A stretch of DNA of 62,012 nt, the filler included, from Stramenopiles sp. TOSAG23-6 (taxonomy: Eukaryota), in assembly GCA_900128565.1 (NCBI GenBank). It is 13 parts of 13 records of this genome, joined end to end, with 100 filler letters (N's around TTAATTAATTAA, not from the genome) between each part and the next. Parts side by side here need not be neighbours in the genome. Positions count along the whole stretch, not along the records: positions 28,693 to 33,374 come from LT637089.1; 12 more parts are not named here. One strand, written 5' to 3'. The notes under the pieces were generated by a model, which did not search any database, was not told the DNA's origin, and saw only the letters and a program-made list of their open reading frames with translations. The position numbers and the translations under genes were made by a program. Below, one piece after another: positions 1 through 62,012 of this stretch. The stretch's first letter is position 1, and each line of letters starts with the position of its first letter.

Positions 1-66
1 TCATACGAAATTTCGTACCTAACATTTTTTTTTAGATTTTTGTTGAAATATTTTTCCACAATACTT
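1..66 (+). other. 3' part of a family intron (contig starts inside it)
   Basis: catacgaaatttcgtacctaac...gaaatatttttccacaatactt; family register ends in TT, and an alternative canonical AG lies at 79-80. Confidence 0.7.
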
Positions 67-791
67 TAACGTTATTTCAGATTTTGGTATCAAATGGCGA
101 AGTTGATAAATATCAAGCAAATCAAATGCTTTCTCATTATTGCACTAATCTCGGTGATTCCATTTCTTTCATGAAAAAATATTGTACTTCAATAAGGGAT
201 ATACCAAATTCTGAAACATTTTCAATATTTATTGGCTTTGCATCAATATATGGTCATATTAAAAATACTAAAAATACTAAAAATACTAAAACTGATAATA
301 ATAATTTGTGTGTGGGTAATAATAGCATTGAAGAAATATACAAAATCGCATCGAAATATTCACAAAGTAATAGTTTAAAAAATACACTTAAAATTGTAAA
401 TAAAGAAGAATCTATTCGGATGTCTGTATCAAAATTAAGACAATTTTGTAAATGGGGCATTGAAGGAGAAGAAGCAGCACAAAAACTGTATGATAGCCTA
501 GTTGAATTCAATATGGTGACAAGTCGCCACCATGAATTGATGATGTTTCATGATGCATTGAAGCGAGGTCCAGATGGTTTGAAGATCTTATTAAACACTC
601 TCAATCGAAACAATGAAAATGAGCATAGTACGAAGCCTAGAATCTCTTCAAAGCATAAAATAGATGATGATAAAATAGAAATCTCTTCAAAGCATAAAAT
701 AGATGATAAAAAAATAGAAATCTCTCCAGGAGATGATGTAAGAAAAATTGACCAAATACCAAATTGGATCTTGGAATGGAATAAAAAATAA
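67..791 (+). CDS. Last exon of a hypothetical protein, weakly PPR-like; 5'-truncated
   Basis: Open frame from the intron end to TAA; PNSETFSIFI resembles the PPR P-N/D-x-x-T-Y/F motif; KNT x3 and EISSKHKIDD x2 micro-repeats. Confidence 0.6.
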
Positions 792-850: not shown

Positions 851-1915
851 CTAGTCTTCTTGTAGATTTACCCATCTCAATACTCGCATTAACTCTTGAA
901 TACGATCGACATTGTCAACCATTTGTTGACATACACGTATTATGAAAAAATATTTCAAAAAAAAATTCGTTAGGTACAAAATTTCGTATGAAAACAAAAT
1001 TAAATTAGAAATTCATATAAAACATACACTATCAAGAACTGTGGCTTTATGCCATGGACAAGGTGGATTTTGACCTCTTAACCATTGTAATATTTCTAAA
1101 TGACCATGCATAGCTGCCATACTACACAGAGCGCCATTCCATGGGCATGGAGGATTTTGGCTTCTTAACCATTGTAACATAAGAAGATTGCCTTTCATCA
1201 CAGATACAAAGCAGGTATTTCGATCCCATGGACAAGGTGGATTTTGATTTCTTAACCATTGTAATACTTCTAAATTACCACTACGAGCTGCATTGGTACA
1301 CACTCTTTCACTCCAGGGGCACGGTGGATTTTGAGTTCTTAACCATCGTAACATTTCTAAGTTACCACTCAGAGCGGCATAATTACATGCATCTTCATCC
1401 CATGGGCAAGGCGGATTTTGACTTCTTAACCATCGTAATGTTTCAAATTTGTTATCCAATGCTGCTATACGACATGCATCTGCATTCCATGGACAAGGTG
1501 GATCTTGGCTTCTTAACCACAGTAATATTTCAAAGTTACCACTCCCAATTGCTTCGGTACACACACTCTCATCCCACGGACATGGCGGTGTTTGACTTCT
1601 TACCCATTTTAATACTTCTAACTGACCCTTTTCAGCTGCATACGTACATGATTCACCCCACGGGCAAGGTGGTTTCCGACTTCTTAACCATTTTAAAAAG
1701 TCCAAGTCACCTTCCTCAGATGCTTTACAACACGTCACTCTACCCCAATCAGCACCCACCAACCAAGGCCGTTGCGAATCATTTGAAACAACTCTACCTG
1801 AGAGTCTGTCTTTTAGACATAAATAGCTGGTAATTATAACTGCTGGACCTAGCCCACTTAGTACCAGTTGTAGAACCTCTTCTTCGTGCTTTGTTCGCTT
1901 TCGTTGTAAAGACAT
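851..1915 (-). CDS. Ankyrin-like repeat protein (about 28-aa GNLExLxWLRxQxPPCPW repeats); join(1915..1028, 934..851)
   Basis: Nine PPCPW repeats; removing intron 935-1027 adds VCQQMVDNVDRIQELMRVLRWVNLQED*, which contains another VLRWV unit. Confidence 0.85.
935..1027 (-). other. Family intron, 93 nt; GT..GT, or GT..AT if slid 4 nt within an 8-nt direct repeat
   Basis: agt|GTATGTTTT...catacgaaattttgtacctaac...ttcataatacgt|gtatgtcaa. Confidence 0.8.
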
Positions 1916-4682: not shown

Positions 4683-4782
4683 NNNNNNNNNNNNNNNNNN
4701 NNNNNNNNNNNNNNNNNNNNNNNNNNTTAATTAATTAANNNNNNNNNNNNNNNNNNNNNNNNNNNNNNNNNNNNNNNNNNNN
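4683..4782. other. Artificial contig spacer N44-TTAATTAATTAA-N44; also at 9465, 14247, 19029, 23811, 28593, 33375, 38156, 42935, 47708, 52478 and 57246
   Basis: Identical 100-nt block with stops in all six frames; flanking contigs are sorted by decreasing length. Confidence 0.98.
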
Positions 4783-8884: not shown

Positions 8885-9630
8885 AGACTTTAGTCAGAAT
8901 TTTTGAAGAATGAAATATGAATGAAATATGAATAAACTTTATGCCACATCCCGAACCGTAATGAACTTCATACCACAACTTATTTCATTTAAATATTTTT
9001 AAAAATATGTAGCGCGTTTTTTACGTTTTTTTGTATCAATAAAATTCAGTAGACATTTATTTATCATAAAATATTTAGAAAAAAAACACAAGCACCTAAT
9101 CATGATTTCTAATAAAATATTCAAATATCAAACACAAGCATTTAATCATGCATTTATTGCTTGTATAGGTTATATGTAACACATCACGTGGGTGACCAAG
9201 CACCTAATCTAGTATCAAACACAAGCCGTAGTTCATTCATATATCGTTTGTAGTTTTTTGCTTCTATATGTTTTAATATCTCACAAATGATCAAAACAAA
9301 AAAGGGACAAATGTAATGTAAAGACATATTCTAAGAAATATATTCGTTTGTTATAGAATTTGGTATGAAAAAGTAATTAGGGTTTCAAAAGTACATTTAA
9401 AAATTAAAAATTGAAATGAATATTGAAATGAATATTGAAATGAATATTGAAATGAATATTGAAANNNNNNNNNNNNNNNNNNNNNNNNNNNNNNNNNNNN
9501 NNNNNNNNTTAATTAATTAANNNNNNNNNNNNNNNNNNNNNNNNNNNNNNNNNNNNNNNNNNNNTCATACGAAATTTCGTACCTAACATTTTTTTTTAGA
9601 TTTTTGTTGAAATATTTTTCCACAATACTT

Positions 9631-23910: not shown

Positions 23911-24704
23911 CAGATGCTAAAGCAAAAGCCGAAGCAGATGCTAAAGCAAAAGCTGAGGCAGATGCAAAAGCAAAAGCTGAGGCAGATGCTAAAGCAAAAG
24001 CTGAGGCAGATGCAAAAGCAATAGCAGATGCAAAAGCAAAAGCTGAAGCAGATATCAAATCATCTACCAACGACCAGAAGAAGGAAAAAAAAAAACAAAT
24101 TCAGAGATGTGATAGATGCAGGGCTGGTGGTGGTTCAAGTGGACGTTCACTTAAAACAAATCCCAAATGCCAGGATTACTGTAGTCCATATAATTATTGT
24201 GGCGTAGGTGGAGCGTATGAAAGAGGCGGCACGAAATGCAGAGACCTAAAGAATATCTATTCATGGTATAAGACTGAAATTGCAAAAGATGAAGCAGATG
24301 CTAAAGCAATAGCAGATGCAAAAGCTGAAGCAGATGCTAAAGCAAAAGCTGAGGCAGATGCTAAAGCAAAAACCGAAGCAGATGCAAAAGCAAAAGCTGA
24401 AGCAGATGCTAAAACAAAAGCTGAAGCAGATGCTAAAACAAAAGCTGAAGCAGATGCTAAAGCAAAAGCCGAAGCAGATGCTAAAGCAAAAGCAAAAGCT
24501 GAAGCATTTGCAGAAGCAAAAGCTGAAGCAGATGCAAAAGCAGAGGGAAGATCTGAAGCTTTCGCAGAGCTAGCAGAATTTGCGTCGAAAGCAAATGCAA
24601 AAGCAGAGGGAAGATCTGAAGCTTTTACAGAGATAGCAAAAATCGCAGGTGAAAAAAGCAAAAGTTTGAAACCCAAGTTTACTACTGAAATTGGCTCAGG
24701 ATAG
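23911..24704 (+). CDS. 3' part of an Ala/Lys/Glu-rich protein (ADAKAKAE 24-bp repeats) with an embedded small Cys-rich module; missing from the ORF track
   Basis: Frame from 23913 is open to TAG at 24702-24704; module CDRC...[12 protein letters not shown]...C lies between two repeat blocks. Confidence 0.75.
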
Positions 24705-25185: not shown

Positions 25186-26545
25186 TTAAACAAGGTAGCT
25201 TGAGATTTTCGAATTATGTGCGATATTTTCTTGTTCAATATTATTATCAGGACAAGAATACTCCAACTGTAAAGTTTCACCTCCGGTACAACCTTTCGGT
25301 ACACAAAATGTTATCATTTGACCTGAAGGAGATGGTACTGTTAATTGTTGACCAGCATGACACGTTGGTAATGTAAATTTAAAAGAATATTTTGTCTTTT
25401 TGTTTATGGTGGGAGCAATATTCTCATTTTTAGTTTTTTTCACATTTCTATTTTCATCACTTTTATCTTATTCCTTATTTTTTACTGCATTACTTTTCGT
25501 CAAACAAGAATCTTGTTTACTTTCCGTCAAACACGAATCTTGTTTATTATTATCAGGACAAGAATATTCCAACTGAACTGTCTCCCCTTTGCGACACCCA
25601 CTTGGTACACAAAATGTTATCATTTGACCTGAAGGAGATGGTACTGTTAATTGTTGACCAGCATGACACGTTGGTAATGTAAATTTAAAAGAATATTTTG
25701 TCTTTTTGTTTATGGTGGGAGCAATATTCTCATTTTTAGTTTTTTTCACATTTCTATTTTCATCACTTTTATCTTATTCCTTATTTTTTACTGCATTACT
25801 TTTCGTCAAACAAGAATCTTGTTTACTTTCCGTCAAACACGAATCTTGTTTATTATTATCAGGACAAGAATATTCCAACTGAACTGTCTCCCCTTTGCGA
25901 CACCCACTTGGTACACAAAATGTTATCATTTGACCTGAAGGAGATGGTACTGTTAATTGTTGACCAGCATGACACGTTGGTAATGTAAATTTAAATTTTT
26001 TCTTGTCTTCAATGATCTGCTCTTTCTTCTCTTCACTTCTATGATTAGGGTTCTTCTCTTCACTTCTATGATTAGGTATGCTCTCGGTTAGCAGGAAAGC
26101 TAACTCTTTGCGCATTCTTCTTTCCGTGCCAACCAAATGTAAAACTACTTCTGTAGCGTTTGATGTTATTTTTTGCAAATTATCATCTGGGTATGCTGAA
26201 CACCAATTTGTCTTACCTCGTTGTCTTTTCATCGAATTCCAAGGTTGAAATCCATTTAAAACTTTTCCATGACAAGGTGTTTTTAAAGTGACTGTGAGGA
26301 CTCTGTTGGTAATTGTTGCGGACAAAATCATTGAAAGGTCGAATTCAATTTTTGTACGTTCAGTTATCATTTGTCTCAACGGCAAGAGATAAGACATCTC
26401 AACTACGAAATGTTTTTTTTCTCAATACTTTCACGGCAATTTCAACATCAGATGCTTCACCGTGAAATTCATTCCTTATATCCTGTGGAGTTCTTGTATA
26501 ATTACCTATTTGCAAATGATTTGACAAAAGAGGAGTCTTTCCCAT
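25186..26545 (-). pseudogene. Disrupted gene: N-terminal PH-like region (resembles the TRF2/HOY1 type) plus three copies of an FTLPTCHAGQQLTVPSPSGQMITFCVP domain
   Basis: The frame from ATG 26545 joins the 26397 ORF only if one A is removed from the A8 run at 26413-26420; in-frame TAA at 25776-25774 and 25470-25468 inside 306-bp repeats. Confidence 0.5.
25240..25996. repeat. 306-bp tandem repeat, about 2.5 copies
   Basis: ORF starts (25749/25443) and stops (25774/25468) are 306 nt apart with near-identical sequence. Confidence 0.9.
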
Positions 26546-26728: not shown

Positions 26729-27675
26729 CTACTTTTTTTTTGCTGCACTACAACGAGAAAGAAGTTTGTCCCTGTTAGATATACCACCTGATACCATTGC
26801 CATCTTATAAAATTCACTATTTTTATCATTGAGTAGTTCGAAAGGTACACCAATTTCCAAAACACATCCATGTATTTTGGTACAATATTTCAAAATTTGA
26901 AATTTTTTTTAAAAAAAATTTCCTATGAAAAAAATACAAGTAAAAAATTCATGATGCAAACATACATACCCCATGACAATGATTCGATCGCAGTCAACAA
27001 CTGTTGATAATCTATGAGCAATTGTAAAAACTGTTCTTCTTTTAAATTCTTTACGAATAACATCTTGAATCAGTGAATCTGTTTCAATATCAATATTAGA
27101 TGTCGGTTCATCAAAAATGTAAAAGTGAAAAATATTTTTTTTTTTTTGGATAAAAAAAATTCATTAGGTACGAAACTTCGTATGAAAAAAAAAATGTAGG
27201 TAAAACATTGGAATGAAAACGTACATAACAATTTTTGAATCTGAGAGAAGAACACGAGCAAGTGAAAGTTGTTGTTTTTGACCCGCAGATAAATTACAAA
27301 TTGTATTGATATTTAATATATTTGTTTCATTATGTATATCACAATTTCGAGAGATTAATTTTGTCAAACCAACTTTGTCAATAACGTTCAATAATTCGGA
27401 ATCAGAAAATTCATCGAAAGGATCTAAATTACACCGTAATGATCCTTCCATAACCAACGGTGTCTGTGGCACAGCTGCAATGCTTTTCCTGAGCACCATA
27501 ATTCCGAGGGTGGTAATATCAACACCATCGATGTGAATCACACCGGAAGTAACATTGACAATACGAAATAAAACTGACATTAATGAACTTTTCCCAGCCC
27601 CAGTTCGTCCCACAATACCAATTTTCTCACCACCTGACACATCAAAGGAAACATTTCGGATGGCTAGTGGTAGTA
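26729..27675 (-). CDS. ABCC/MRP-type ABC transporter, C-terminal NBD; join(27675..27225, 27116..26966, 26869..26729); 5'-truncated
   Basis: Walker A GRTGAGKSS, signature LSAGQKQ, Walker B IVIFDE (after splicing), H-loop IAHRLSTV. Confidence 0.9.
26870..26965 (-). other. GT-AT intron, 96 nt (degenerate core)
   Basis: ggg tat|GTATGTTTG...ccaaaatacAT|gga; restores DRIIVMGYGCVLE. Confidence 0.8.
27117..27224 (-). other. GT-AT family intron, 108 nt, inside Walker B
   Basis: gtt at|GTACGTTTT...cttttacAT|t ttt gat gaa; restores KIVIFDEPTSNID. Confidence 0.9.
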
Positions 27676-27770
27676 ATGTATTTTGAAAAAATATTTCAAA
27701 AAAAAATCTAAAAAATTTGTTAGGTACAAAATTTCGTACGAAAAAAAAATTCGAAAAAAATAAAACATAC
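27676..27770 (-). other. GT-AT family intron, 95 nt, joining two unrelated genes (probable chimeric join)
   Basis: Full consensus element; the flanking exons are out of phase and from different families. Confidence 0.8.
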
Positions 27771-28529: not shown

Positions 28530-28592
28530 ATATATTTTGAAAAAATATTTCAAAAAAAAAATTAATTTTTGTTAGGTACAAAATTTCGTACG
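28530..28592 (-). other. 3' half of a family intron (AT acceptor), cut by contig end
   Basis: cgtacgaaattttgtacctaac...ttcaaaatatAT|a ttg tca. Confidence 0.8.
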
Positions 28593-28692: not shown

Positions 28693-28782
28693 TGGAAAAA
28701 TATTTCAAAAAAACCCGNTANGGTANAAANTTTCGTANAAAAAAAAACCAATTAATTCGAAATTAAAAAAAAAAAAACATAC
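28693..28782 (-). other. Family intron, 3' end cut by contig start
   Basis: tgt at|GTATGTTTT; core contains ambiguous bases. Confidence 0.75.
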
Positions 28783-29300
28783 ATACAATCACGACATTCG
28801 TTCATTGCACGAAGAAATGATGAGGATACATTTGCACCCATTGTAAAATCATGATCTCTCACACACTGCTGGAACTCACGCACTATGCATTGTGAAAAAA
28901 TATTTTTTTTTGAATTAAAAAAATTGTTAGGTACAAAACTTTCATAGTAAAAAAAATACTTTACATTAAAACATACATCCACATAAGAACAATATCTCGA
29001 GAGTATAAACCTGAATTATGCATTTTTGAAGCTTTCAATGCTGTTAACTCATCTTTTTCCAAAAGTCCACAGATGACAAGGTCCTCATATATTGTAAAAT
29101 TTGTTTTTTTGTAAAATTTGTTAGGTACAAAATTTAGTGCGAAAAAAAATTCGAACTTGAAAAAAAATAAAACATACATTTGTGGATTCTTCATACGTTG
29201 GGTCGATACCCTTGTAAGTTAAGAAATGTGCAACATTTAAATATCGGTATATCCGAAAGTGGATTTTATTTGTTGCTGCATTTTCATGGCGAAATGCCGC
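28783..29300 (-). CDS. Bestrophin-family channel, internal exons; join(29300..29178, 29086..28977, 28884..28783)
   Basis: Spliced RIYRYLNVAHFLTYKGID...EDLVICGLLEKDE...IVLMWIVREF...AMNECRDC parallels the bestrophin cytosolic region. Confidence 0.7.
28885..28976 (-). other. GT-AT family intron, 92 nt
   Basis: tgg at|GTATGTTTT...tcacaatgcAT|a gtg; restores the frame. Confidence 0.85.
29087..29177 (-). other. GT-AT family intron, 91 nt
   Basis: aca aat|GTATGTTTT...ttacaatatAT|gag gac; restores the frame. Confidence 0.85.
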
Positions 29301-29391
29301 ATATATTTTCGAAAAATATTTCAAAAAAAAATCGTTAGGTACAAAATTTACTATGAAAAAAAAATCGAATTTGAAAAAAAATAAAACATAC
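29301..29391 (-). other. GT-AT family intron, 91 nt, joining phosphatase to bestrophin (probable chimeric join)
   Basis: gta tac|GTATGTTTT...cgaaaatatAT|gcg. Confidence 0.8.
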
Positions 29392-30783: not shown

Positions 30784-33244
30784 ATGCCACGTGATAGTCG
30801 CAAACGACGCGATCGAAGTTATTCTCCTGATAGAAAGCGAAGTCGAAGTCACCGTGATGGTTCGTCACACCACAGACATCGGTCAGATAGAGACTACAGT
30901 CGGCGTCCAGAAAGAAGTCGTGCTAGGTCTCGTGAAAGAGATTACGATGATAGACGCCGACGATCAAGTCATCGCGATACAAGCTTTTCAGACTCTCGAT
31001 ATGCATCTGACCACCGGTTGTCAAAGGAGCGTGGGAAAGAGTCCTCAGCTAAAGCTAACGCTGATCGTGCTGCAGCTCAAGCAACATTAGCTAAATTGTT
31101 GTCTAAAAAAAATTCCAAAATGGATAGTTCGGCAAATTCCAGTACAACGTCAATAAAACAGATAAATCAATCAAACCCATCAGACGTCTTGAAAAAGTCA
31201 AATATATCAGTCGATAAAAATACAAAAAATACAAAAAATATAAAAAAGACCATTTCCAAAAAAAAGACTTCTTGGGTGACTGAAAACGGAAATTCTGATA
31301 TGAATAATGGTATTCCCAAAAGTAGCAGTTCTACGCCTATACATTCAGTTATCTCATTTAAAACGAATAGTAAATCGTCTATTGGGCGAATTTCGTTTGG
31401 TAAAAAACAAAAAATTGAAAAAAAAATGAATCTGAAAATGAAGTCTATTTTTAATACTTCAAAATCAACAACACCTGTTAGTACAAAAGGTTTTGGTTTT
31501 GGTAATAATAAGACTTTATTACAGAAAAAACAAGATCAAAATGCTTTACTAAAAAATACAAAAAATACAAAAGATACAAAAGATACAAAAGATAAGACCT
31601 CTTCAACAAGAACAAATGGAAGTACAAATAATAAAGATAATAAAAATAATAAAACAGATACGGATATAACGTATACGGAAGAAACAATTGATGATGATAC
31701 GTACTATGCCGAATTTCAAAAAGCAATGAAAGAAAGAAATAACAAAACACAAGAAGAAAAAACTAATTCTGATTCAAATTCTACTACTACTACTACTACA
31801 ACGACACGTAGTGATTTAGGTGTCTTGCGAGATGACGGTGATGAAATGTTATCACGATTGGAAACAATGAACAAAAAATCTGCATTGGAAATTCTTAGAG
31901 AAAAAATGAAGAAAAAAGAATTAAAAAAAGTCGACCATGCGACTGCAAACTATGAAGATTTCCGAAAAAAGTTTTATATTGAAGCTCATTCATTGACAAA
32001 ATTTACAGGTGAAGAAAATGAAAGTAGACGTAAAGTAATGGGTATAAAAATTAGAGGGAGAAAATGCCCTCCGCCAGTTGATACTTGGGAACAATGCGGA
32101 TTATCTTCAAAAATTATGTATGTTCTTGAAAAATCAGGGTATAAAGAACCATTTCCAATTCAAAGGCAAGCGATTCCTGCATTAATGTCTGGTCGAGATA
32201 TGCTTGGTGTAGCAAAAACAGGTTCTGGGAAAACATTAGCATTTTTATTGCCTATTTTTCGTCATGTTTTAGATCAAAGAAAACTATTGGAATGCGAAGG
32301 ACCTATAGCTCTGATTTTAGCACCTGCGAGAGAATTATGTGTTCAAATACATAAAGAAATTTTACGATTTTGTAAAGTTTTAAATTTAACAGCTTGTGCG
32401 GTATATGGCGGATCTAGTGTTGGTGATCAAATATCTAAACTAAAACGAGGAGTTCATATTGTTACATGTACACCAGGACGATTTATTGATATTTTAACAA
32501 TGAATGCAGGACGTTTGATATCACTACGCCGTGTTACCTTTCTAGTTTTAGATGAAGCAGATCGAATGTTTGATATGGGTTTTGAACCTCAAATTGGAAT
32601 GATATTACAGAATATTCGACCAGATCGACAAACTGCTTTATTTTCTGCGACATTTCCTGCACATGTATGTTTTATTTTTTTCAATTTTTTATCTAAATAT
32701 TTTTTTTTTTTGAAAAATGTTGTACCTAACAAATTGTACAAAAAAAAAAAAAAATTCACAAAACATGTGGAACAACTAGCAAGAAAATTGTTAAAACACA
32801 AACCTGTCGAAATTGTTGTCGGTGGACGTAGTAATGTATCAAATACTATTACTCAATTTGTTGAAATTCGTTCTGAGCGTCAAAAGTGGTTACGTCTTTT
32901 ACAATTGTTAGGTAAATGGGTTGTTGAGAATGAAGATCAATGTATCTTGATTTTTGTTGAGACTCAGAAAAAATGTGATTCATTATTCACTCGCCTCATG
33001 AGAGCAGGATATTTCGTGTTATCATTACATGGAGGCAAAGAACAAGTCGATCGTGAACAGTCTCTTTTAGACTTTAAACAAAAAACACGTAAAATATTAA
33101 TCGCCACATCTGTCGCTGGTAGAGGGTTAGATGTCAAAGATCTCAATTACGTTGTCAATTTTGATACTCCAAATCATTTGGAAGATTATGTACATAGAGT
33201 TGGACGAACAGGACGTGCTGGTAAAGTTGGAACTTCTTATACAT
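30784..33244 (+). CDS. DDX46: DEAD-box helicase DDX46/Prp5; join(30784..32664, 32767..33244); 3'-truncated
   Basis: RS-rich N-terminus, VDH...YEDFRKKFYIE, AKTGSGKT, DEAD, FSATFP, HRVGRTGRAG. Confidence 0.92.
32665..32766 (+). other. GT-AT family intron, 102 nt, in-frame, containing no AG
   Basis: gca cat|GTATGTTTT...gtacctaac...ttcacaaaacAT|gtg gaa; restores FSATFPAHVEQLARK. Confidence 0.9.
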
Positions 33245-33374
33245 GTACGTTTTATATGAATTTCTAATTTAATTGTTTTTTTTTTGGTAAAAAATTTTGT
33301 ACCTAACAAATTTTTTTAGATTTTTTTTGAAATATTTTTTTTTTCATACGAAATTTTGTACCTAACAAATTTTT
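33245..33374 (+). other. Family intron with duplicated core, cut by contig end
   Basis: aca t|GTACGTTTT; two GTACCTAAC motifs. Confidence 0.8.
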
Positions 33375-38255: not shown

Positions 38256-38398
38256 AAAAATTTGTTAGGTACAAAATTTCGTATGAAAAAAAAAATATTT
38301 CAAAAAAAATATTTCAAAAAAAAAAATTCAAAAAAATTTGTTAGGTACAAAATTTACTATAAAAAAAAATTCATACAAAAAAAATAAATAAAACATAC
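38256..38398 (-). other. Family intron with duplicated core, cut by contig start
   Basis: gac ata t|GTATGTTTT; two GTACCTAAC motifs. Confidence 0.8.
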
Positions 38399-39833: not shown

Positions 39834-40391
39834 CGATCAGTCGCTTTACCTTTATAAATAACTCCCTCACTATATATAAAAAGACAACAATACAACCCAG
39901 TTTCTTTCTTTTTAAGATGTGAAACTCAAAAAGTGTAAATGGAAGGGATTTTATTTGCGTTCTCCACTTTTGTTTCAATTATTGTGGCAACAAAAACAAG
40001 TGACAACAGAACAGAAACAAGTGACACGTGTGAAGAAAAGGATTTCACGATGTTTCGCGCGAAATTCTTGTCAATATTTGCTATTTTTTGTTTTGTTAAG
40101 TACAAAGTTTTGTACCAAAAAAAAACCAAAAGCCCAGTCATTTTCAAAAAAGCCAGCTGTTCTTTCTACGCGCACTGACTATATTCTTAGGTAACAAATT
40201 TATGTACAAATCAACGATGAGCAGCCCTCGGAAGGAACTTCATCAACTGGATGGAACTGTATTACATATAACCCTCAGCTCACAATATTCATAGCAATAA
40301 AACTTGCTGAAATTCTGTGCTAATTATCTTCGATTGCATTGTCATCGTCAAAACACTTGATCAGTTCACTGCATTCACAGTATCACTACAA

Positions 40392-42242
40392 ATGCCTCCT
40401 CCAGCTCAAACTACTAAGCGCAAAAGGGCACCATCCGTTGACTTGTTAATGACTTTTGCAAAATCCGCACAGCTGCCTACAGCGGGGGTGCAAGGGACGC
40501 AAGCTGCGTCTCCTTCAACGAATTGTACATTTTCAGAAAAACAAAATATATCAAAAATCACTCCTAATTGTAGGTTTAAAACCTCATTCAATGATAGTAA
40601 CTTCGCGAGAGGTCAGTTACACGATCAAACTAACTCTTGCGCTTCAGAGAATGGCGGCATATTCGCTCAAGCAACAGCTAAACAATTCTCTCTTGGAAAG
40701 CGAAAACAAAGACGCGTGAATGGACAACTATCCATAAGCCCCAAGAGCAATCATTATGGTTTCCACCAGGTATACAAGAAACAAAGTGAAATCAATAAAG
40801 AAGAGCTCGAACGTGAGCTTCTTTCTCATTCAGGAACAAAAAGCACAAAACGTATTAAACCAATCCCACGCATACGAATCAAGAGCCAAAAGTCAAAATA
40901 TCGTGGTGTATGCTGGGATGTACGTAAACAAAGGTGGAAAGCTCAGATTGGTTACAGTGGTCAAACTCATTTTCTCGGCCATCATGATGAAGAAAAAATA
41001 GCGGCTAAATATTACGACAAAGCTGCATTAAAATTTCATGGTAAGAGAGCTCGTCTCAATTTCGAATATGAAAATAACGAAATTCGTTTGGACCAGATGG
41101 ATCAAGTTATTATACCAGCAAAACCACATCGCTTTCGTGATGATAAGAGAATACAACAATCGATGGTAAATTCTCTACAGAAATTTGGTTCAAATTCAAT
41201 CGATCCACTACAACAAAGTCAAATGGACGGGATAAGTCGTAGTAATTCTCGTAGAAAGCAAAGAAGTTGGGGAAATTCACATACTTCGTCACAACAACAA
41301 CGCCAAAAACGTCACTATCACCACCAACAACAACAATTTCAGATGGGTCAACACCAGCAAATCCAACAAGAACAAATTCAGTTGGATGCACAACAACAAC
41401 TTGATTATTGTACGAAATCGTACCAAACACGAGAACCACAAAATCAACTACAAAATCAACTACAAACTTCCTTTGGCGATAGTGGAAGTGGACAAACTGG
41501 TGGACAGACGATGAGAATGTTGTATCGAGATAGCAATCAACAGTTAGCGATTGGTGAATTTGTGTGTAGAGCTGGTCAGAATATGCAAAAATGTCGTAAT
41601 ACTGCGGCTGAAAATACTGCAGCATTTATGATGTCATTTCAAAAAAATAGATTACCATTTCAAAAGAATAGATTACATCAACGACACCATAATAAAGACC
41701 ATAAAGAACAAATTCAACATTTGTCGAAGTTTGATATGAATATTGGTACAACAGAACCTCAAGAAACATCTCGTTCTCCTATGCAGTCATCAAAATTATC
41801 ATCAAAATTATCATCAGAATTACCGACGATTGGATCAATTGAAAATTCCAAATCGCCTTTGTTATTTAGTCCTACATTGAATCATCATAACCCTAACCCT
41901 AATACGAATGAAAGTAACTTGGAGAGTAAAACTTTTTATAGTAATGAAAATGATTCAAAATTTGGGTCTCGATATGATGATAAAGAATTGCGTAGTAATG
42001 AATTTTCTCGTGTGGTAGACAATAGCCCTAACCCTAACTCACAGGATATTTGTGGTACGAAACATAGTATACATAGTATAAACCCTAACCCTAATTCTTC
42101 CCAAAATATTCAAAATAATATTCAAAATAATATTCAAAATATTGAACAAAATAATATTCAAAATAATATTAATATTCAAAATATTGAACAACTAAGTGGC
42201 ATGGATTATCTAAAAAAGAATCTTGCATCCTCATTCAGTTGA
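40392..42242 (+). CDS. AP2-domain transcription factor with Q/N-rich regions
   Basis: SKYRGVCW...RWKAQI...FLG...EKIAAKYYDKAALKFHGKRARLNF. Confidence 0.9.
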   Translation: MPPPAQTTKRKRAPSVDLLMTFAKSAQLPTAGVQGTQAASPSTNCTFSEKQNISKITPNCRFKTSFNDSNFARGQLHDQTNSCASENGGIFAQATAKQFSLGKRKQRRVNGQLSISPKSNHYGFHQVYKKQSEINKEELERELLSHSGTKSTKRIKPIPRIRIKSQKSKYRGVCWDVRKQRWKAQIGYSGQTHFLGHHDEEKIAAKYYDKAALKFHGKRARLNFEYENNEIRLDQMDQVIIPAKPHRFRDDKRIQQSMVNSLQKFGSNSIDPLQQSQMDGISRSNSRRKQRSWGNSHTSSQQQRQKRHYHHQQQQFQMGQHQQIQQEQIQLDAQQQLDYCTKSYQTREPQNQLQNQLQTSFGDSGSGQTGGQTMRMLYRDSNQQLAIGEFVCRAGQNMQKCRNTAAENTAAFMMSFQKNRLPFQKNRLHQRHHNKDHKEQIQHLSKFDMNIGTTEPQETSRSPMQSSKLSSKLSSELPTIGSIENSKSPLLFSPTLNHHNPNPNTNESNLESKTFYSNENDSKFGSRYDDKELRSNEFSRVVDNSPNPNSQDICGTKHSIHSINPNPNSSQNIQNNIQNNIQNIEQNNIQNNINIQNIEQLSGMDYLKKNLASSFS

Positions 42243-42396: not shown

Positions 42397-42809
42397 CTAA
42401 TTATAATCATCATCATCCAATTCACTCTCCGATTGTGTCATTGAATCATCAGAATGATTATCATCATCGTCATCATCCTCATCACTAGACCGTAAGATAA
42501 TATCTTTATTAGGGTTAGGGTTATCCAGACGTGTTTCACTTCCAATGTTCCGTTTGTCATTTTTATTATACTCGTCATATATTTTGGAAAAATATTTCAA
42601 AAAAAAAAACTTAAATTTGTTAGGTACAAAATTTTTATAAAAAATAAATTTGAAATTGAAAAAATTTTGTAAAAAAAAAAAAATAAAACATACATCACTA
42701 TACTCACTTGTTGATTCATCATCACTTGAAGTATCTTCTATAGCATCACCATCAACAATCCAGTCTTCCATATCAGCATAACTATCAGTTCCATCTTCTT
42801 GGACTAACC
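42397..42809 (-). CDS. Acidic C-terminal exons of a hypothetical protein; join(42809..42694, 42576..42397)
   Basis: Frame (W)LVQEDGTDSYADMEDW...SEYSD|DEYNK...DDDYN* bounded by family introns. Confidence 0.7.
42577..42693 (-). other. GT-AT family intron, 117 nt
   Basis: agt gat|GTATGTTTT...ttccaaaatatAT|gac gag. Confidence 0.85.
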
Positions 42810-42934
42810 ATAAATTGTGAAAAAATATTTCAAAATTTTTTTTTTCCGTAAAAAACAAAATTTTGTTAGGTACAAAATTTACTATGAAAAAAAAAAAAAA
42901 AAAAAAAAAAAACAAAAAAAAAAAAAAAAAAAAC
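42810..42934 (-). other. 3' part of a family intron (AT acceptor)
   Basis: gtacctaac...ttcacaatttAT|gg tta. Confidence 0.75.
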
Positions 42935-43053: not shown

Positions 43054-43804
43054 AAAAATAATAATGGGTCTTATTTATTATCAAGACTACCGAGTGATAT
43101 ACGTTATCATCACATAATTTTTTTTTCTTTACTATGAAAATTCTGTACCATTTTTTTTTTACTATGGAAATTCCGTACCATTTTTTTTCCAAGATATCAA
43201 TTTTTTTCAATGGTTTCAATTTAAAATTTTTTTTCAATTTTTTTTCAATTTTTTTTTCTATGAAAATTTTATAGACTACCTATAACTAACAAATTTCAAA
43301 TTTCAAATATTTCTTCACAAAACACGAATTATCTTCAATTGGTAACTATATTTTGTGGCATTGTTTTTGATGCTTTCGGTATATATATATTAACATCTCG
43401 TAGTGATGAAGATCGAAATGCTGAATATTATGATGATTATGAAGACGAAGAAGAAGAGGAACTTTTATATGGTCTTGATTTTCAAAAAAAAAAAAAAAAA
43501 ATGAATTCTAAAGAACCTCCAAGTATATTTTATTTTTTTCAATTTTTTGTCTAATTTTTTTTTTCGTACGTAATTTTGTACCTAACAAATTTTACAAAAA
43601 AAAAAAAAAAAATTTCACAAAACATGTACCACCAAGGTAAGTAGAGGTCGCCGTCGATGGAGATTATATAAAAACACAAGAAAAGGAGTTAAGAATTTCT
43701 CTACATTCATCCATTGGGATAATGAAGCGTATAAAGAAAGTTCATTTAAAGGCTTAGACGGTAGGAGATGGTCAATGTCAATATTTGGTGTAGGTCATGC
43801 CTAA
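43054..43804 (+). CDS. NIPA-like Mg2+ transporter C-terminus; join(43054..43098, 43326..43522, 43626..43804); 5'-truncated
   Basis: Spliced KIIMGLIYYQDYRVMNYLQLVTIFCGIVFDAFGIYILTS resembles the last NIPA helices. Confidence 0.6.
43099..43325 (+). other. Intron, 227 nt, apparent AT-AC variant of the family
   Basis: gtg at|ATACGTTATC...actaac...cttcacaaaacAC|g aat. Confidence 0.6.
43523..43625 (+). other. GT-AT family intron, 103 nt
   Basis: cca a|GTATATTTT...gtacctaac...ttcacaaaacAT|gt acc. Confidence 0.8.
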
Positions 43805-49467: not shown

Positions 49468-50732
49468 TCAAGAATAATCTCTCTCTGGAATCTCCCATGT
49501 ATTGTGAACAAAAAAACACGAAATCATGAAAAAAAACATTAGGTATGAAATTTTGGTACAAAAAAATAAAATTTGAAATTGAAAACGTACATGCAATCTC
49601 CCCTGTATCTGAATGTTTATAAATGTATTCATCACTGATTTCATCTTTTTGTTTGATCCATTTTTCTCTTTCCAGTTGCATAAGAAATTTTCTACTGTAC
49701 TTAAAAAAATATTTCAAAAAAAATCATTAGGTACAAAATTTCGTATGAAAAAAACAACTAAATTTGAAATTGAAAAAAAAATAAAACAAACACTTCTGCA
49801 GTTTTTTGACGATGTTTTTCAACTTGATTTGTTCTTTTATATAAACGTATGAGTGGTGAAAAATATTTTTTTTTAGTAAAAAGAAAGTTGTTAGGTATGG
49901 AATTTAAAAAAAAAAAATTCATTAGGTACGAAATTTTGTATGAAAAAAAAATTAAATTCCAAATTCAATATTGAATACGTACAAACGGACATTTTTCATA
50001 TATTGTGTATATCCTTTCCATTGATTAAAAATTCTCATGACACTTTGATTAGCCATGTAATTTTGGAAATAAATATATATTTTTTTTAGGGTTTGTTAGT
50101 TCTTTAAATTTCATGATACACAAAAAAAAAATTTTAAAAAATATATTTTTCTTAGGTACAAAATTTCGTACTAAAAAAAGAAAATTAAAAAAACTACAAA
50201 AAAATTTAAAAAAAGTTTAAAAAAAAATTAAAAAAAAATGTTTAGGTACAAAATTTCGTACCAAAAAAAAAACGTACATACGCCATATAGTTTGTCGTAA
50301 TATTTTATACTCTCTATCAATTCGTTGTTTTTCTTTTGTTACAAATTTTTGTACATATTTATGTTGTTCAGCTAAAATTAAAGTTTTAATTAAATGTTTA
50401 TATTTTTTGGATGCTTTTTCTATTGTAATTAAATTAGTGTTAGGTTGATATGTTGTTGTTGTAGGTGTATTCTTATTTTTATCTACAGAATTAAAGTACG
50501 AAGAAGATTCGCTAGGGTTAGGGTTCTCGAGAAGAATTTTATCCCATACAATATTTGATTGTTGTTGTTCAAATTCATTCATTTTTAATTCTACTTCATA
50601 TTTTGGATGTTTTCGATTCTCATTTTCTTGATTTTGTTTTTTTTGTAACAAATCTAATATTGTATCAAATTTATTCTGTTGTTTGATGGTTAATTCTGAA
50701 ATACCTTTTTTTATATTTCGTGTTTTAATTTT
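49468..50732 (-). CDS. Protein with C-terminal WW domain; join(50732..50278, 50054..49983, 49848..49792, 49694..49591, 49496..49468); 5'-truncated
   Basis: Four family introns removed in one register give a continuous frame ending WIKQKDEISDEYIYKHSDTGEIAWEIPERDYS*. Confidence 0.82.
49497..49590 (-). other. GT-AT family intron, 94 nt, splitting the second Trp codon of the WW domain
   Basis: gca t|GTACGTTTT...ttcacaatacAT|gg gag; no AG inside. Confidence 0.9.
49695..49791 (-). other. GT-AG member of the same family, 97 nt
   Basis: gaa gt|GTTTGTTTT...tttaagtacAG|t aga. Confidence 0.85.
49849..49982 (-). other. GT-AT family intron, 134 nt
   Basis: cgt tt|GTACGTATT...ttcaccactcAT|a cgt. Confidence 0.8.
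50055..50277 (-). other. GT-AT family intron, 223 nt, two cores
   Basis: cgt at|GTACGTTTT...ccaaaattacAT|g gct. Confidence 0.8.
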
Positions 50733-50754: not shown

Positions 50755-52477
50755 TGTGAATGTATTTACTTGACAGATTTGTGCCTCTCCAATAATAGGT
50801 TAAAAGTATATTATCTTTATATATCATTTTCTTTGATACTTTAATGAATCAAGTACACAATATCTAGTATAAAATATTTCATTTTTTTAAACTCTTTTTA
50901 TTATTTTTATATACATTTTACATAGTACATATACTCCCTGAAAATCTTGCAGAAAAATGTACATTTTCACTCAATTTCCTATTAATTTATGTTTTTTCCT
51001 AGACAATATTGTACCTAATAAAAAAAAATTAAAATATTTTTCAAAAATAAATGTACAAATTTAACAAGTTTGGATATAACAAAAAATTATTTGACAACAT
51101 TACCAAAAAATTGTGGAAATTGGAAAAAACTACCCAATTTAAACTTGACTCATAACAAATTTATAACTGTACCTGAATCATTTGGTGAATTGAAATTAAC
51201 AAAATTGAAAATGTCAGTAAATAAGTGTTTGTTTTATTTTTTTTCAATTTCAAATTATTTTTTCATACGAAATTTTGTACCTAACGATTTTTTTTTGAAA
51301 TATTTTTTCATAGTAATCTAATTGAATGGCCACTGCCAATTAATAAAATAAGTGACACTTTGATTGTTTTACAAATGAATTGTAATTCTTTAACTGAAAT
51401 ACCAAATTCAATTACAACACTAACACAATTAAGGCGATTATGTACGTTTTTATCATTTTTTTTTTTATTATTTTTTTTTCATACGAAATTTTGTACCTAA
51501 ACAATTTTTTTTTTAATTATTTTTTTAATGATTTTTTTAATTATTTTTAGTATTATTTTTAGTATCATTTTGAATTTATTTTTGTACCTAATGTATACAA
51601 ATTTGATATTGTTTTTATAACACATGGCTGTGTAACAATAAAATCAAAGTATTTCAAGAAAAATTATGTGAAATGACAAAATTGGACCAATTATGGCTCG
51701 ATTGGAATTGTATAGAAGAATGTACTTTTTCATCATTTATTTTAATTTATTTTTTTTCGTACGAAATTTCGTACCTAACAAAAACAAATTTACTATTTTT
51801 TCACAATATATTACCTATGGAATTTAGATTCATGACATCACTACAAGTACTCAAAATGGAAGGTAATCCAATGATGATGCCACATACAGAAGTTGTAGCA
51901 AAAGTATTTCATCACTAATATCAAATTTATTTTTTGTTTCATGGAATTTTTTTTTAAATTTTACCCAACACAAAAAATTAATTTTGAAATTTCAATGTTT
52001 TTTATTTTTTTTAGTAAAAAATTTTCGTACCTAACAAATTTCAAATAAATTTTATACTTTTATATTTCTCAGGGTGCTCAAAAAGTTCGAAATTTTCTTC
52101 AAACAAAATTTGATCGAATAATTGCTGATGAAGTTTTGAATGTAATTAAAGCATTTATTCGAACTTTACATGTATATTTTCATGATGAATTAAAAAAAAA
52201 AAATTCATACAAAATTCCGTACCTAATGATTTTTTTTTATGATTTCGTGTTTTTTTTTTACATAACATGTCATAAGAAGAAATCAACATACACCAAGTAC
52301 ATCTGGAGGATATACAGGAGCAGGAGATACTTCATCACCAGATCCTTTATTTGAAGATAATGAAAATTATATATCAGTTGATAATAATGATTCAAAAGAA
52401 GAAGAAAAAAAAGTAAACCCTAACCCTACAAAAAAAAAAGTAAACCCTAACCCTACCAAAAAAAAAAAAAAAAAAAA
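50755..52477 (+). CDS. Leucine-rich repeat protein; exons 50755-50805, 50931-50958, 51053-51226, 51319-51441, 51626-51721, 51812-51903, 52073-52171, 52269-52477; truncated at both ends
   Basis: Spliced product keeps LxxLxLxxNxLxxLP periodicity and the cap GNPMMMPHTEVVAKGAQKVRNFL. Confidence 0.85.
50806..50930 (+). other. GT-AT intron, 125 nt (no palindromic core)
   Basis: tta aaa|GTATATTAT...catagtacAT|ata ctc cct; the AG 5 nt upstream would frameshift. Confidence 0.8.
50959..51052 (+). other. GT-AT family intron, 94 nt, 9-nt direct repeat AAATGTACA at both ends
   Basis: aaa t|GTACATTTT...aaataaAT|gt aca. Confidence 0.85.
51227..51318 (+). other. Family intron, ambiguous ends (GT..TC in family register, or GT-AG 51225-51313 adding one residue)
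   Basis: Full core present; both readings are in frame. Confidence 0.7.
51442..51625 (+). other. GT-AT family intron, 184 nt, two cores
   Basis: tta t|GTACGTTTT...tataacacAT|gg ctg; restores LRRLWLCNN. Confidence 0.85.
51722..51811 (+). other. GT-AT family intron, 90 nt, perfect 16-bp palindrome, no AG
   Basis: gaa t|GTACTTTTT...GTACGAAATTTCGTACctaac...tcacaatatAT|ta cct; restores NCIEELP. Confidence 0.9.
51904..52072 (+). other. GT-AG intron carrying the family core, 169 nt
   Basis: gca aaa|GTATTTC...ttcgtacctaac...tttctcAG|ggt gct. Confidence 0.85.
52172..52268 (+). other. GT-AT family intron, 97 nt
   Basis: tta cat|GTATATTTT...tacataacAT|gtc ata; ACATGT at both ends. Confidence 0.8.
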
Positions 52478-61953: not shown

Positions 61954-62012
61954 GTTTGTTTTATTTTTTTTCAATTTCGAATTTATTTTTCGTACGAAAT
62001 TTTGTACCTAAC
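61954..62012 (+). other. 5' part of a family intron, cut by window end
   Basis: caa cat|GTTTGTTTT...cgtacgaaattttgtacctaac. Confidence 0.85.

Follow-up and report, generated by a model that had tools for sequence, protein, structure and literature searches.

A repeated family of introner-like elements with GT...AT ends in contigs of the uncultured marine eukaryote Stramenopiles sp. TOSAG23-6

Analysis of a 62,012-base stretch of DNA from Stramenopiles sp. TOSAG23-6 (assembly GCA_900128565.1; "the window" below means this whole stretch) revealed that nearly all introns in its contigs belong to one repeated family of about 90–120 nt, which begins with GT and in most copies ends with AT. The family consists of a 5' end GTAYGTTTT, a branch-like box (TACCTAAC), a T-tract and a 3' end CAMAATAYAT. 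Judged by its sequence, it is introner-like, which is more than a set of unrelated introns sharing splice signals. The reading that we favour, and to which we give about an even chance, is that this introner family is removed by a U2-type spliceosome at GT...AT, with AT/G as the context in which the element inserts and is spliced (a slash marks a junction throughout).

The window is not one locus: it comprises 13 contigs sorted by length, from 4,682 down to 4,667 bases, joined by 12 identical spacers (N44-TTAATTAATTAA-N44, at 4683–4782, 9465–9564, and so on). Contigs 1–5 are five copies of one sequence (100% identity), and contigs 10 and 12 are reverse complements of each other (99.5%). Duplicates were removed, and the counts below rest on the remaining eight unique contigs (about 37 kb), with intron boundaries set by alignment to the family profile.

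In every intron-like interruption the box CATACGAAATTTTGTACCTAAC (exact or nearly so) was found, with GTAYGTTTTATTTTTTTTCAATTTCGAATTT ahead of it and a T-run, GAAATATTTTTTC and AMAATAYAT behind it. An nhmmer profile built from 13 copies recovered about 30 copies or fragments; the strong profile matches and the core boxes all lay in the sense orientation of the containing gene, and no antisense or clearly intergenic full-length copies were seen in this search. The host genes encode a helicase, an ABC transporter, a phosphatase, a leucine-rich repeat (LRR) protein, an ankyrin protein and an exportin. Full-length identity across unrelated genes reached 0.88–0.89 (median 0.70, 136 pairs), the high-identity pairs being the helicase copy at 32665 with the contig-10 copy at 43523, and 49791 with 51227. 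Diagnostic variants common to several loci define subfamilies, one with an A-run and a TTCACAAAACAT tail and another with a ATGATTTCGTGT tail, the latter also present in the independent metagenome contig L002. A CTAAY box was found in 19 of 20 complete introns, 32–47 nt from the 3' end and followed by T-rich sequence, and the intron-internal GT and AT were more conserved than the flanking exon AT. Two core boxes occurred in four long introns (50113–50277 and 38256–38398 on the minus strand; 51442–51625 and 33245–33374 on the plus strand), which represent either one element inserted in another or tandem duplications. Seven of the 16 unique-contig ends (1, 28592, 28693, 33374, 38256, 42934 and 62012) lie inside a copy of the element, which points to a high genomic copy number and to a repeat that breaks the assembly.

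A core-box scan of metagenome contigs revealed two further loci, L001 and L002. Two bacterial contigs from the genome-contig scan with the same box were rejected, L003 having no match to the family profile and L004 only a weak one to part of the core (E=1e-05). In viral contigs, a shorter pattern gave 120 single matches, one of which the profile accepted weakly, and these were treated as chance.

The junctions of the family were strongly biased. GT was present at 24 of 24 donors, within a GTAYGT-type consensus as in canonical U2-type introns. The 22 acceptors ended in AT (19), AG (2) or GT (1), that is, mostly not in the canonical AG. The upstream exon ended in AT in 17 of 24 cases (GT 3, AA 2, AC 1, TT 1), and the first base of the downstream exon was G in 14 of 22 (p=1.5e-5). 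AT makes up 9.2% of coding dinucleotides and 12.2% in the most favourable codon phase, and exon-terminal AT exceeds both backgrounds (p=4e-13 and p=4e-11, respectively); the enrichments of AT and G are far beyond chance. An earlier sequence-only reading of the window had reported that 18 of 26 donor exons end in AT, that the introns end in the same dinucleotide and that the next exon often starts with G. Its enrichment of AT and its following G are borne out, with the count corrected to 17 of 24 (17 of 29 with duplicates). The AT count gains nothing from redundancy, since none of the duplicated introns follows an exon ending in AT. The shared intron end holds for 19 of 22 acceptors and fails for the intron at 935–1027, which ends in GT at the coordinates of that reading and has a GT...AT reading only 4 nt further along its 8-nt repeat.

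The length of the excised segment could be fixed exactly for two introns. The intron singled out by the sequence-only reading (32665–32766, 102 nt; hereafter the helicase intron) carries ACATGT at 32661–32666 and 32763–32768, as had been claimed. BLASTP of the read-through open reading frame (ORF) showed an exact 34-residue gap against two homologs, with flanks SATFPAH/VEQLARK in the helicase and SATFPPKVEALARK and SATFPRQMEALARK in the homologs. Such a gap requires the excision of 102 nt, for which the 6-nt repeat leaves seven possible registers. For the ABC transporter intron at 27224–27117, exon 1 aligned to residue 1398 of PDB chain 9u57_A and exon 2 from residue 1399. For the exon after 26870, comparison with the PDB yielded nothing that could be used.

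Of 15 introns tested, 13 had long open frames to either side when excised in the GT...AT register, against a chance expectation of one in three, and this was the only register common to all introns: left-lying repeats (27224, 28976, 51722) permit shifts of -2 to 0 and right-lying ones (29391, 43523) shifts of 0 to +1 or +3. AT...AC was rejected as a universal register, with exon AT in 17 of 24 and AC at intron positions -4/-3 in at most 12 of 18, versus GT in 24 of 24 and AT in 19 of 22. The AT used as acceptor was never the first one past the CTAAY box, the tails holding three to six ATs each.

These junctions bear on a simpler account, namely that there are no GT-AT introns and that the pattern reflects an assembly or amplification artefact, removal at the DNA level, or GT-AG introns with misplaced boundaries. 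The assembly is indeed fragmentary and redundant, with five identical contigs and one reverse duplicate, and three copies can be read as GT...AG (49791–49695, 51904–52072 and 51225–51313); in the copy at 27770, a GT donor can be combined with a standard acceptor in frame only through an internal TAG, which gives a 63-nt intron. However, the helicase intron contains no AG at all, and the nearest downstream AG would give a 116-nt excision from the phase-0 donor that is out of frame and deletes residues conserved in homologs. The ABC transporter intron at 27224–27117 has no AG past its branch-like box, and its junction is exact. Most copy lengths are not multiples of 3, hence not coding, and the element is present in the independent metagenome contigs L001 and L002; by sampled words, 34–41% of contig 7 was also present in seawater metagenome runs (a lead only). 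We consider this account very improbable. Ciliate-type DNA elimination with pointers was rejected separately, given the standard genetic code and the stramenopile homologs.

An existing gene model may illustrate the consequences of the GT-AG rule. The only protein identical in blocks to the helicase locus (stretch 32200–33240) was P0162 ("GSMAST32.ASY1.ANO1.738.1 assembled CDS"), a genome-based model that reads FPAHV/SRKLL at the helicase intron and lacks the conserved EQLA and several other conserved blocks. Its sequence suggests that the GT-AG rule was forced onto GT-AT introns, and the existing annotation of the organism is probably unreliable.

In the mechanism that we favour, the element would itself supply a 5' site (GTAYGTTTT), a branch box, a T-rich tract and a fixed 3' end (CAMAATAYAT). 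The CTAAC within the box CATACGAAATTTTGTACCTAAC, 32–47 nt from the 3' end, would probably be the branch site, and a U2-type spliceosome would remove the element at GT...AT. The architecture of the element would set the 3' cut, with T and occasionally G as the last base. The exon AT and the following G would form a site signature marking where the element inserts and is still spliced, as an analogue of the proto-splice site, possibly with a 2-nt duplication of AT. Spliceosomal removal, use of the branch box and mobility we infer from these sequence features.

Several observations weigh against this mechanism. Read as a 95-nt GT...AT intron, the copy at 27770–27676 (among the 15 whose frame was tested) loses the frame; a 63-nt GT...AG option would use the internal TAG, and alignment with AtABCC2 (RPQLPP vs RPK-LPL) favours 99 nt. 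Another of the 15, at 49590–49497, is in frame only with a gene end 8 codons on, and the copy at 51227–51317, tested separately, breaks the frame as GT...AT. For the segment 51225–51317, the 23-residue period of the LRR repeats would favour a 92-nt excision, and the cut position may vary between copies. A strictly AT acceptor, as distinct from the mechanism above, is disfavoured by two introns that end in AG (49791–49695 and 51904–52072). The first of these, which supports the mechanism, has ACAG where its relatives have ACAT, is in frame and is 0.89 identical to its sibling copy, which makes the 3' cut position a property of the element, with T or G as the last base. To our knowledge, no U2-type spliceosome routinely uses an AT 3' end. 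Searches with the DDX46 region and the phosphatase found no transcript-derived protein of the same species. Mobility is suggested by the similarity between copies alone, and the figures cover only the eight unique contigs, hence are not genome-wide.

A T-run with an AG 9–17 nt past the branch-like box, well upstream of the AT end, was observed at 27709–27708 and 42613–42612 (both minus strand) and in the copies at 1–35 and 33299–33330. In the introns at 27770 and 42693 this upstream AG would also keep the frame, and use of an alternative 3' site is possible there.

A related reading, which we put forward tentatively as possible, places the change in the host. The sequence-only reading had likewise offered a coordinated change in -1 recognition as its alternative to insertion with duplication. 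Acceptors would have shifted from AG to AT across the intron set of this lineage, with exon ends shifting from AG/ to AT/ in step; a single introner burst would have been the driver, and altered recognition of the -1 positions (by the U1 5' end, U5 loop 1, U2AF1 or step-2 factors) would accommodate the new ends. An Rfam search of the stretch found no small nuclear RNA.

The two ends of the element are also complementary to each other. Exon AT followed by GTAT is complementary to ATACAT, as TTTT is to AAAA, and together they form a short and imperfect terminal inverted repeat (ATGTAT(G)TTTT / AAAA.ATACAT). Across the aligned introns, 76.5% of the cells pair, versus 25–64% when the 3' partner is slid, and the self-complementarity (ATGT...ACAT) noted by the sequence-only reading therefore holds at the level of the consensus. 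AT is its own complement, so an AT...AT direct repeat is equally an inverted repeat, and the data fit both descriptions.

The direct-repeat description corresponds to a true target-site duplication. In this account, a transposon of the miniature inverted-repeat transposable element (MITE) type has GTAT(G)TTTT...AAAATAC as its terminal inverted repeats and duplicates its target, which is either AT or a longer, ATGTA-like site; the downstream AT becomes the last two bases of the intron, and splicing restores the exon. The layout of the copies (AT, inverted ends, AT), with terminal columns pairing as described above, resembles that of a MITE. All three further repeats listed by the sequence-only reading were found at their places (ACATGT at 52172–52268, GTGTATGT at 935–1027 on the minus strand and AAATGTACA at 50959–51052). 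In two introns a rare 3' base is mirrored in exon 1: the intron at 935–1027 is the only one with G at -2, and its exon -2 is also G, while the intron at 50959–51052 is one of two with A at -3, and its exon -3 is also A.

For the introner test described in PMC9860276, as far as the available part of that source sets it out, we compared 5'/3' matches within each of 18 introns with those between different introns. No position was above the non-self expectation (-2, 16 of 18 vs 14.2; -1, 16 vs 16.0; +1, 12 vs 12.0; -3, 7 vs 4.5). Mean repeat length was 3.44 versus 3.05 in non-self pairs (permutation p=0.023), and four of 18 introns had repeats of at least 6 nt (p=0.05 for four or more). Long junction repeats are thus present as claimed, with an excess over non-self pairings that is only marginal (p=0.02–0.05); they arise mostly because every 5' junction (xAT/GTAYGT) resembles every 3' junction (AYAT/Gxx). 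This slight excess leans towards duplication. Besides the match test, several points stand against it: 19 of 22 introns end in AT, yet seven of 24 upstream exons do not; the G enriched at position +1 of exon 2 falls beyond a 2-nt duplication; under every frame-compatible boundary, two family copies show a repeat of only 0–1 nt; and neither antisense or clearly intergenic full-length copies nor a transposase in the 38 ORFs scanned were found. We know of no transposon superfamily with an AT duplication. Taken as a whole, we judge this account rather unlikely.

Of the earlier proposal of insertion with duplication, the insertion part is credible, because the family is multi-copy, structured into subfamilies and located in unrelated genes, and the duplication part is possible, with no position above expectation in the match test. 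The exon AT could reflect duplication of a fixed 2 nt, insertion into preferred sites with no duplication, or a requirement of splicing. The available text of PMC9860276 documents introner families with 3–9 bp duplications that supply a splice site and makes the point, for AG/GY...AG families, that duplication and site preference look alike where the flanking dinucleotide is invariant. Since the enriched G lies outside any 2-nt duplication, a preferred AT/G context is indicated under either model.

The inverted-repeat description corresponds to structure-guided, nonconventional splicing, in which the 5' junction (exon AT plus GTAT) pairs with ATACAT and sets the cuts, the terminal dinucleotides are irrelevant and the AT...AT repeat is a base pair. 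The outermost pair (exon -2 with intron -1) was formed in 15 of 15 aligned introns, two of them through G-U, and in four of six single folds the minimum-energy structure closed both junctions into a stem. Two family copies are seemingly cut 1–2 nt off the family position, which may be compared with the hairpin-relative borders described for Amoebophrya (PMC7789003) and the paired ends described for hemistasiid diplonemids (PMC12621601) in the available portions of those reports. However, covariation was absent from the alignment: pairing was 76.5% versus 76.4% with the 3' letters shuffled among sequences, and a single cell had changed on both sides. RNAalifold gave a consensus of -0.37 kcal/mol without a terminal stem, the six single folds had z-scores of -1.8 to +0.1, and the helix amounts to only 6–10 A-U-rich pairs. 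The nearly uniform borders (GT 24 of 24, AT 19 of 22) and the conserved canonical 5' splice site and branch-like box also stand against this account, which we regard as improbable. A self-cleaving RNA was rejected, with no Rfam match in the stretch and no stable fold. The coordinates of the introns and related features are summarized in Table 1.

Table 1. Copies of the intron family and associated junction features, with positions counted along the window
Feature	Position	Strand	Basis
Helicase intron, 102 nt GT...AT, in DDX46/Prp5-type DEAD-box helicase gene	32665..32766	+	BLASTP 34-residue gap vs P0001 and P0007; flanked by Pfam DEAD and Helicase_C; family alignment
5' ACATGT copy (exon ACAT + intron GT)	32661..32666	+	Repeat extends 4 nt left and 2 nt right
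3' ACATGT copy (intron ACAT + exon GT)	32763..32768	+	
GTACCTAAC branch-like box of the helicase intron, 37 nt from 3' end	32722..32730	+	
Family intron, ankyrin-repeat gene, GT...GT in family register, 8-nt repeat GTGTATGT; present five times (contigs 1–5 identical)	935..1027	-	
Family intron, 96 nt GT...AT, ABCC-type transporter	26870..26965	-	Open frames of 65 + 46 codons
Family intron, 108 nt GT...AT, before Walker B exon of ABC transporter, junction exact	27117..27224	-	PDB 9u57_A 1398/1399; frames of 441 + 68 codons
Family copy; GT...AT (95 nt) breaks frame; 96, 99 or 63 nt (63 = GT...AG) keep frame	27676..27770	-	
Family intron, 92 nt GT...AT, acid-phosphatase-like gene	28885..28976	-	
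Family intron, 91 nt GT...AT, acid-phosphatase-like gene	29087..29177	-	
Family intron, 91 nt GT...AT; exon end AC, so only GT...AT or TA...TG registers	29301..29391	-	Frames of 349 + 59 codons
Family intron, 117 nt GT...AT	42577..42693	-	
Family intron, 103 nt GT...AT, exon end AA, 88% identical to the helicase intron; duplicate in contig 12	43523..43625	+	
Family intron, 94 nt GT...AT; frame fits only if gene ends 8 codons later	49497..49590	-	
Family copy, 97 nt GT...AG, ends ACAG	49695..49791	-	Frames of 57 + 105 codons
Family intron, 134 nt GT...AT, two partial core boxes, exon end TT	49849..49982	-	
Long family intron, 165 nt GT...AT, two core boxes	50113..50277	-	
Family intron, 94 nt GT...AT, LRR gene, 9-nt repeat AAATGTACA	50959..51052	+	
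Family copy, LRR gene; GT...AT 51227–51317 breaks frame; GT...AG 51225–51313 (89 nt) or 92-nt excision keeps it	51225..51317	+	
Long family intron, 184 nt GT...AT, two core boxes, LRR gene	51442..51625	+	
Family intron, 90 nt GT...AT, LRR gene	51722..51811	+	
GT...AG intron, 169 nt, with core box	51904..52072	+	Frames of 99 + 93 codons
Family intron, 97 nt GT...AT, ACATGT repeat	52172..52268	+	
Family intron, cut by contig end, donor only, exon end AT	28693..28782	-	
Family intron after helicase C-terminal exon, two core boxes, cut by contig end, donor only, exon end AT	33245..33374	+	
Family intron, cut by contig end, donor only, exon end AT	38256..38398	-	
Family intron, cut by contig end, acceptor only, ends AT	28530..28592	-	
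Family intron, cut by contig end, acceptor only, ends AT	42810..42934	-	
Exportin-1 family intron, cut at contig and stretch end, donor only, exon end AT	61954..62012	+	
3' part of family copy at contig start; acceptor 66 (family register, ends TT) or TTTCAG at 80	1..80	+	

The closest homologs of the host, an uncultured eukaryote from the sea, are found in stramenopiles; for the helicase, the best ones are stramenopile proteins with 57–60% identity. The whole stretch has a G+C content of about 33% and uses the standard genetic code. Pfam-recognisable genes comprise a DDX46/Prp5-type helicase, an ABCC-type transporter, a metallophosphatase, LRR and ankyrin proteins, exportin-1, a mitochondrial carrier and a VIT-family protein. 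A Prp5/DDX46 gene within the stretch itself fits a retained spliceosome and proves nothing more.

Other features of the contigs were also observed. Telomere-like dimers, AACCCTAACCCTA(A), lie inside or beside genes, several near gene ends (2034, 41891–42094, 42395, 42509–42520 as reverse complement, 50518 as reverse complement, 52418, 52445 and 60190), and occur in L002 as well; they may be a regulatory or 3'-end motif. One contig (33475–38155, minus strand) is a single open frame of 1,560 residues with Cys-rich repeats and a weak Ephrin_rec_like match, and both of its ends repeat the same sequence, so that the array exceeds the contig. At 1045–1691, and in the four duplicate contigs, 7.5 tandem copies of an 87-nt unit (68% matches) lie within an ankyrin-repeat ORF. 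The segments 23911–24544 and 25239–25995 hold a 24-nt periodic array encoding an Ala/Lys/Asp/Glu-rich repeat and a separate 306-nt unit present 2.5 times at 96% identity. An ORF of 643 residues without introns (40311–42239, plus strand) showed a sub-threshold AP2 match (28.1 bits against a cut-off of 33.3).

A literature search found no description of introners in MAST-3, nor of GT-AT non-canonical introns in protists; the one paper found that mentions both MAST-3 and splice sites is unrelated. In a single-cell genome paper on uncultured stramenopiles (PMC5778133), the main text, which is the part considered here, contains "intron" twice and "splice" never, and its supplements could bear on the matter. 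As far as these searches reach, the GT-AT introner family is probably previously unreported.

The GT-AG rule is near-universal, and GT-AT introns would be a rare departure from it if RNA data confirm them. The large-scale exceptions (Fritillaria, Amoebophrya, euglenids and some diplonemids) have diverse or structure-defined ends. The present family would differ in three ways: it is a single repeated element with a canonical 5' end and branch box, the replacement is confined to the final base of the intron, and the same T appears in the upstream exon. If the change lies in the host, as in the tentative reading above, this would be a natural case of a 3' splice site that has lost its G while GT, branch site and T-tract stay canonical. 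The family would also bear on whether exon contexts resembling proto-splice sites arise from insertion or from spliceosomal selection. Gene models built under GT-AG for this organism appear wrong (the one compared, P0162, loses conserved residues), and published gene counts and functional inventories of such single-cell genomes may be distorted.

Comparison with known intron and transposon classes revealed partial likeness to several of them. U12-type introns tolerate AT-AC and other 3' ends and have an RTATCCTT 5' site, a TCCTTAAC box about 10–20 nt from the 3' end and a branch consensus CCTTAAC. The present family resembles them in its very conserved 5' site and branch box, in a 3' dinucleotide that is not restricted to AG and in the similarity of CCTAAC to CCTTAAC. 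This class was nevertheless rejected, as the 5' site is GTATGT (GTAYGTTTT) and not RTATCCTT, the box lies 32–47 nt from the 3' end and a long T-tract is present. The TA target-site duplication that flanks the inverted repeats in MITEs of the Stowaway or Tc1-mariner type has no counterpart here, since the copies are flanked by AT in the one register common to all introns.

Introners (PMC9860276), which are intron families of transposon origin known from Micromonas, Aureococcus, dinoflagellates and numerous further protists, showed the closer correspondence, as far as the available part of that report describes them. Like these, the present family comprises many near-identical short introns at non-homologous positions in unrelated genes, sense-oriented, AT-richer than exons and divided into subfamilies, with short direct repeats and inverted ends at the junctions and the same ambiguity between duplication and preferred site. 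Unlike the introners described there, which end GY...AG, 19 of 22 ends here are AT, and neither a locus-specific duplication nor an intergenic copy was seen. The non-canonical introners of Amoebophrya (Syndiniales; PMC7789003) likewise form a repeated family without GT-AG ends in a marine protist, with direct repeats of 3–5 nt over the junctions and inverted end repeats that blur the boundary. In the sections of that report drawn on here, they have no dominant dinucleotide pair, inverted repeats of 8–20 nt and clear hairpins, whereas the present copies have nearly uniform GT...AT ends, 6–10 weak A-U pairs, a canonical 5' site and a branch-like box.

The nonconventional introns of euglenids (PMC3935182, PMC4770533) and of hemistasiid diplonemids (PMC12621601) share with our family ends that can pair, and so could bring the splice sites together, and direct repeats at the borders. 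They differ in having variable borders, stable pairing and no single family, whereas the borders here are uniform, the pairing is weak and without covariation, and one family accounts for the copies. In the tunicate Fritillaria borealis, by the available account (PMC13326754), fewer than 10% of introns are GT/AG, the spliceosome is still of the U2 type and recognition of non-canonical 3' ends falls to divergent U2AF paralogs. That case has both ends non-canonical and diverse, in an animal, whereas in this protist the 5' end is canonical and only the last base differs (T for G); its U2AF-based change of 3' recognition (PMC13326754) makes changed 3' recognition a realistic model for the GT...AT family described here.

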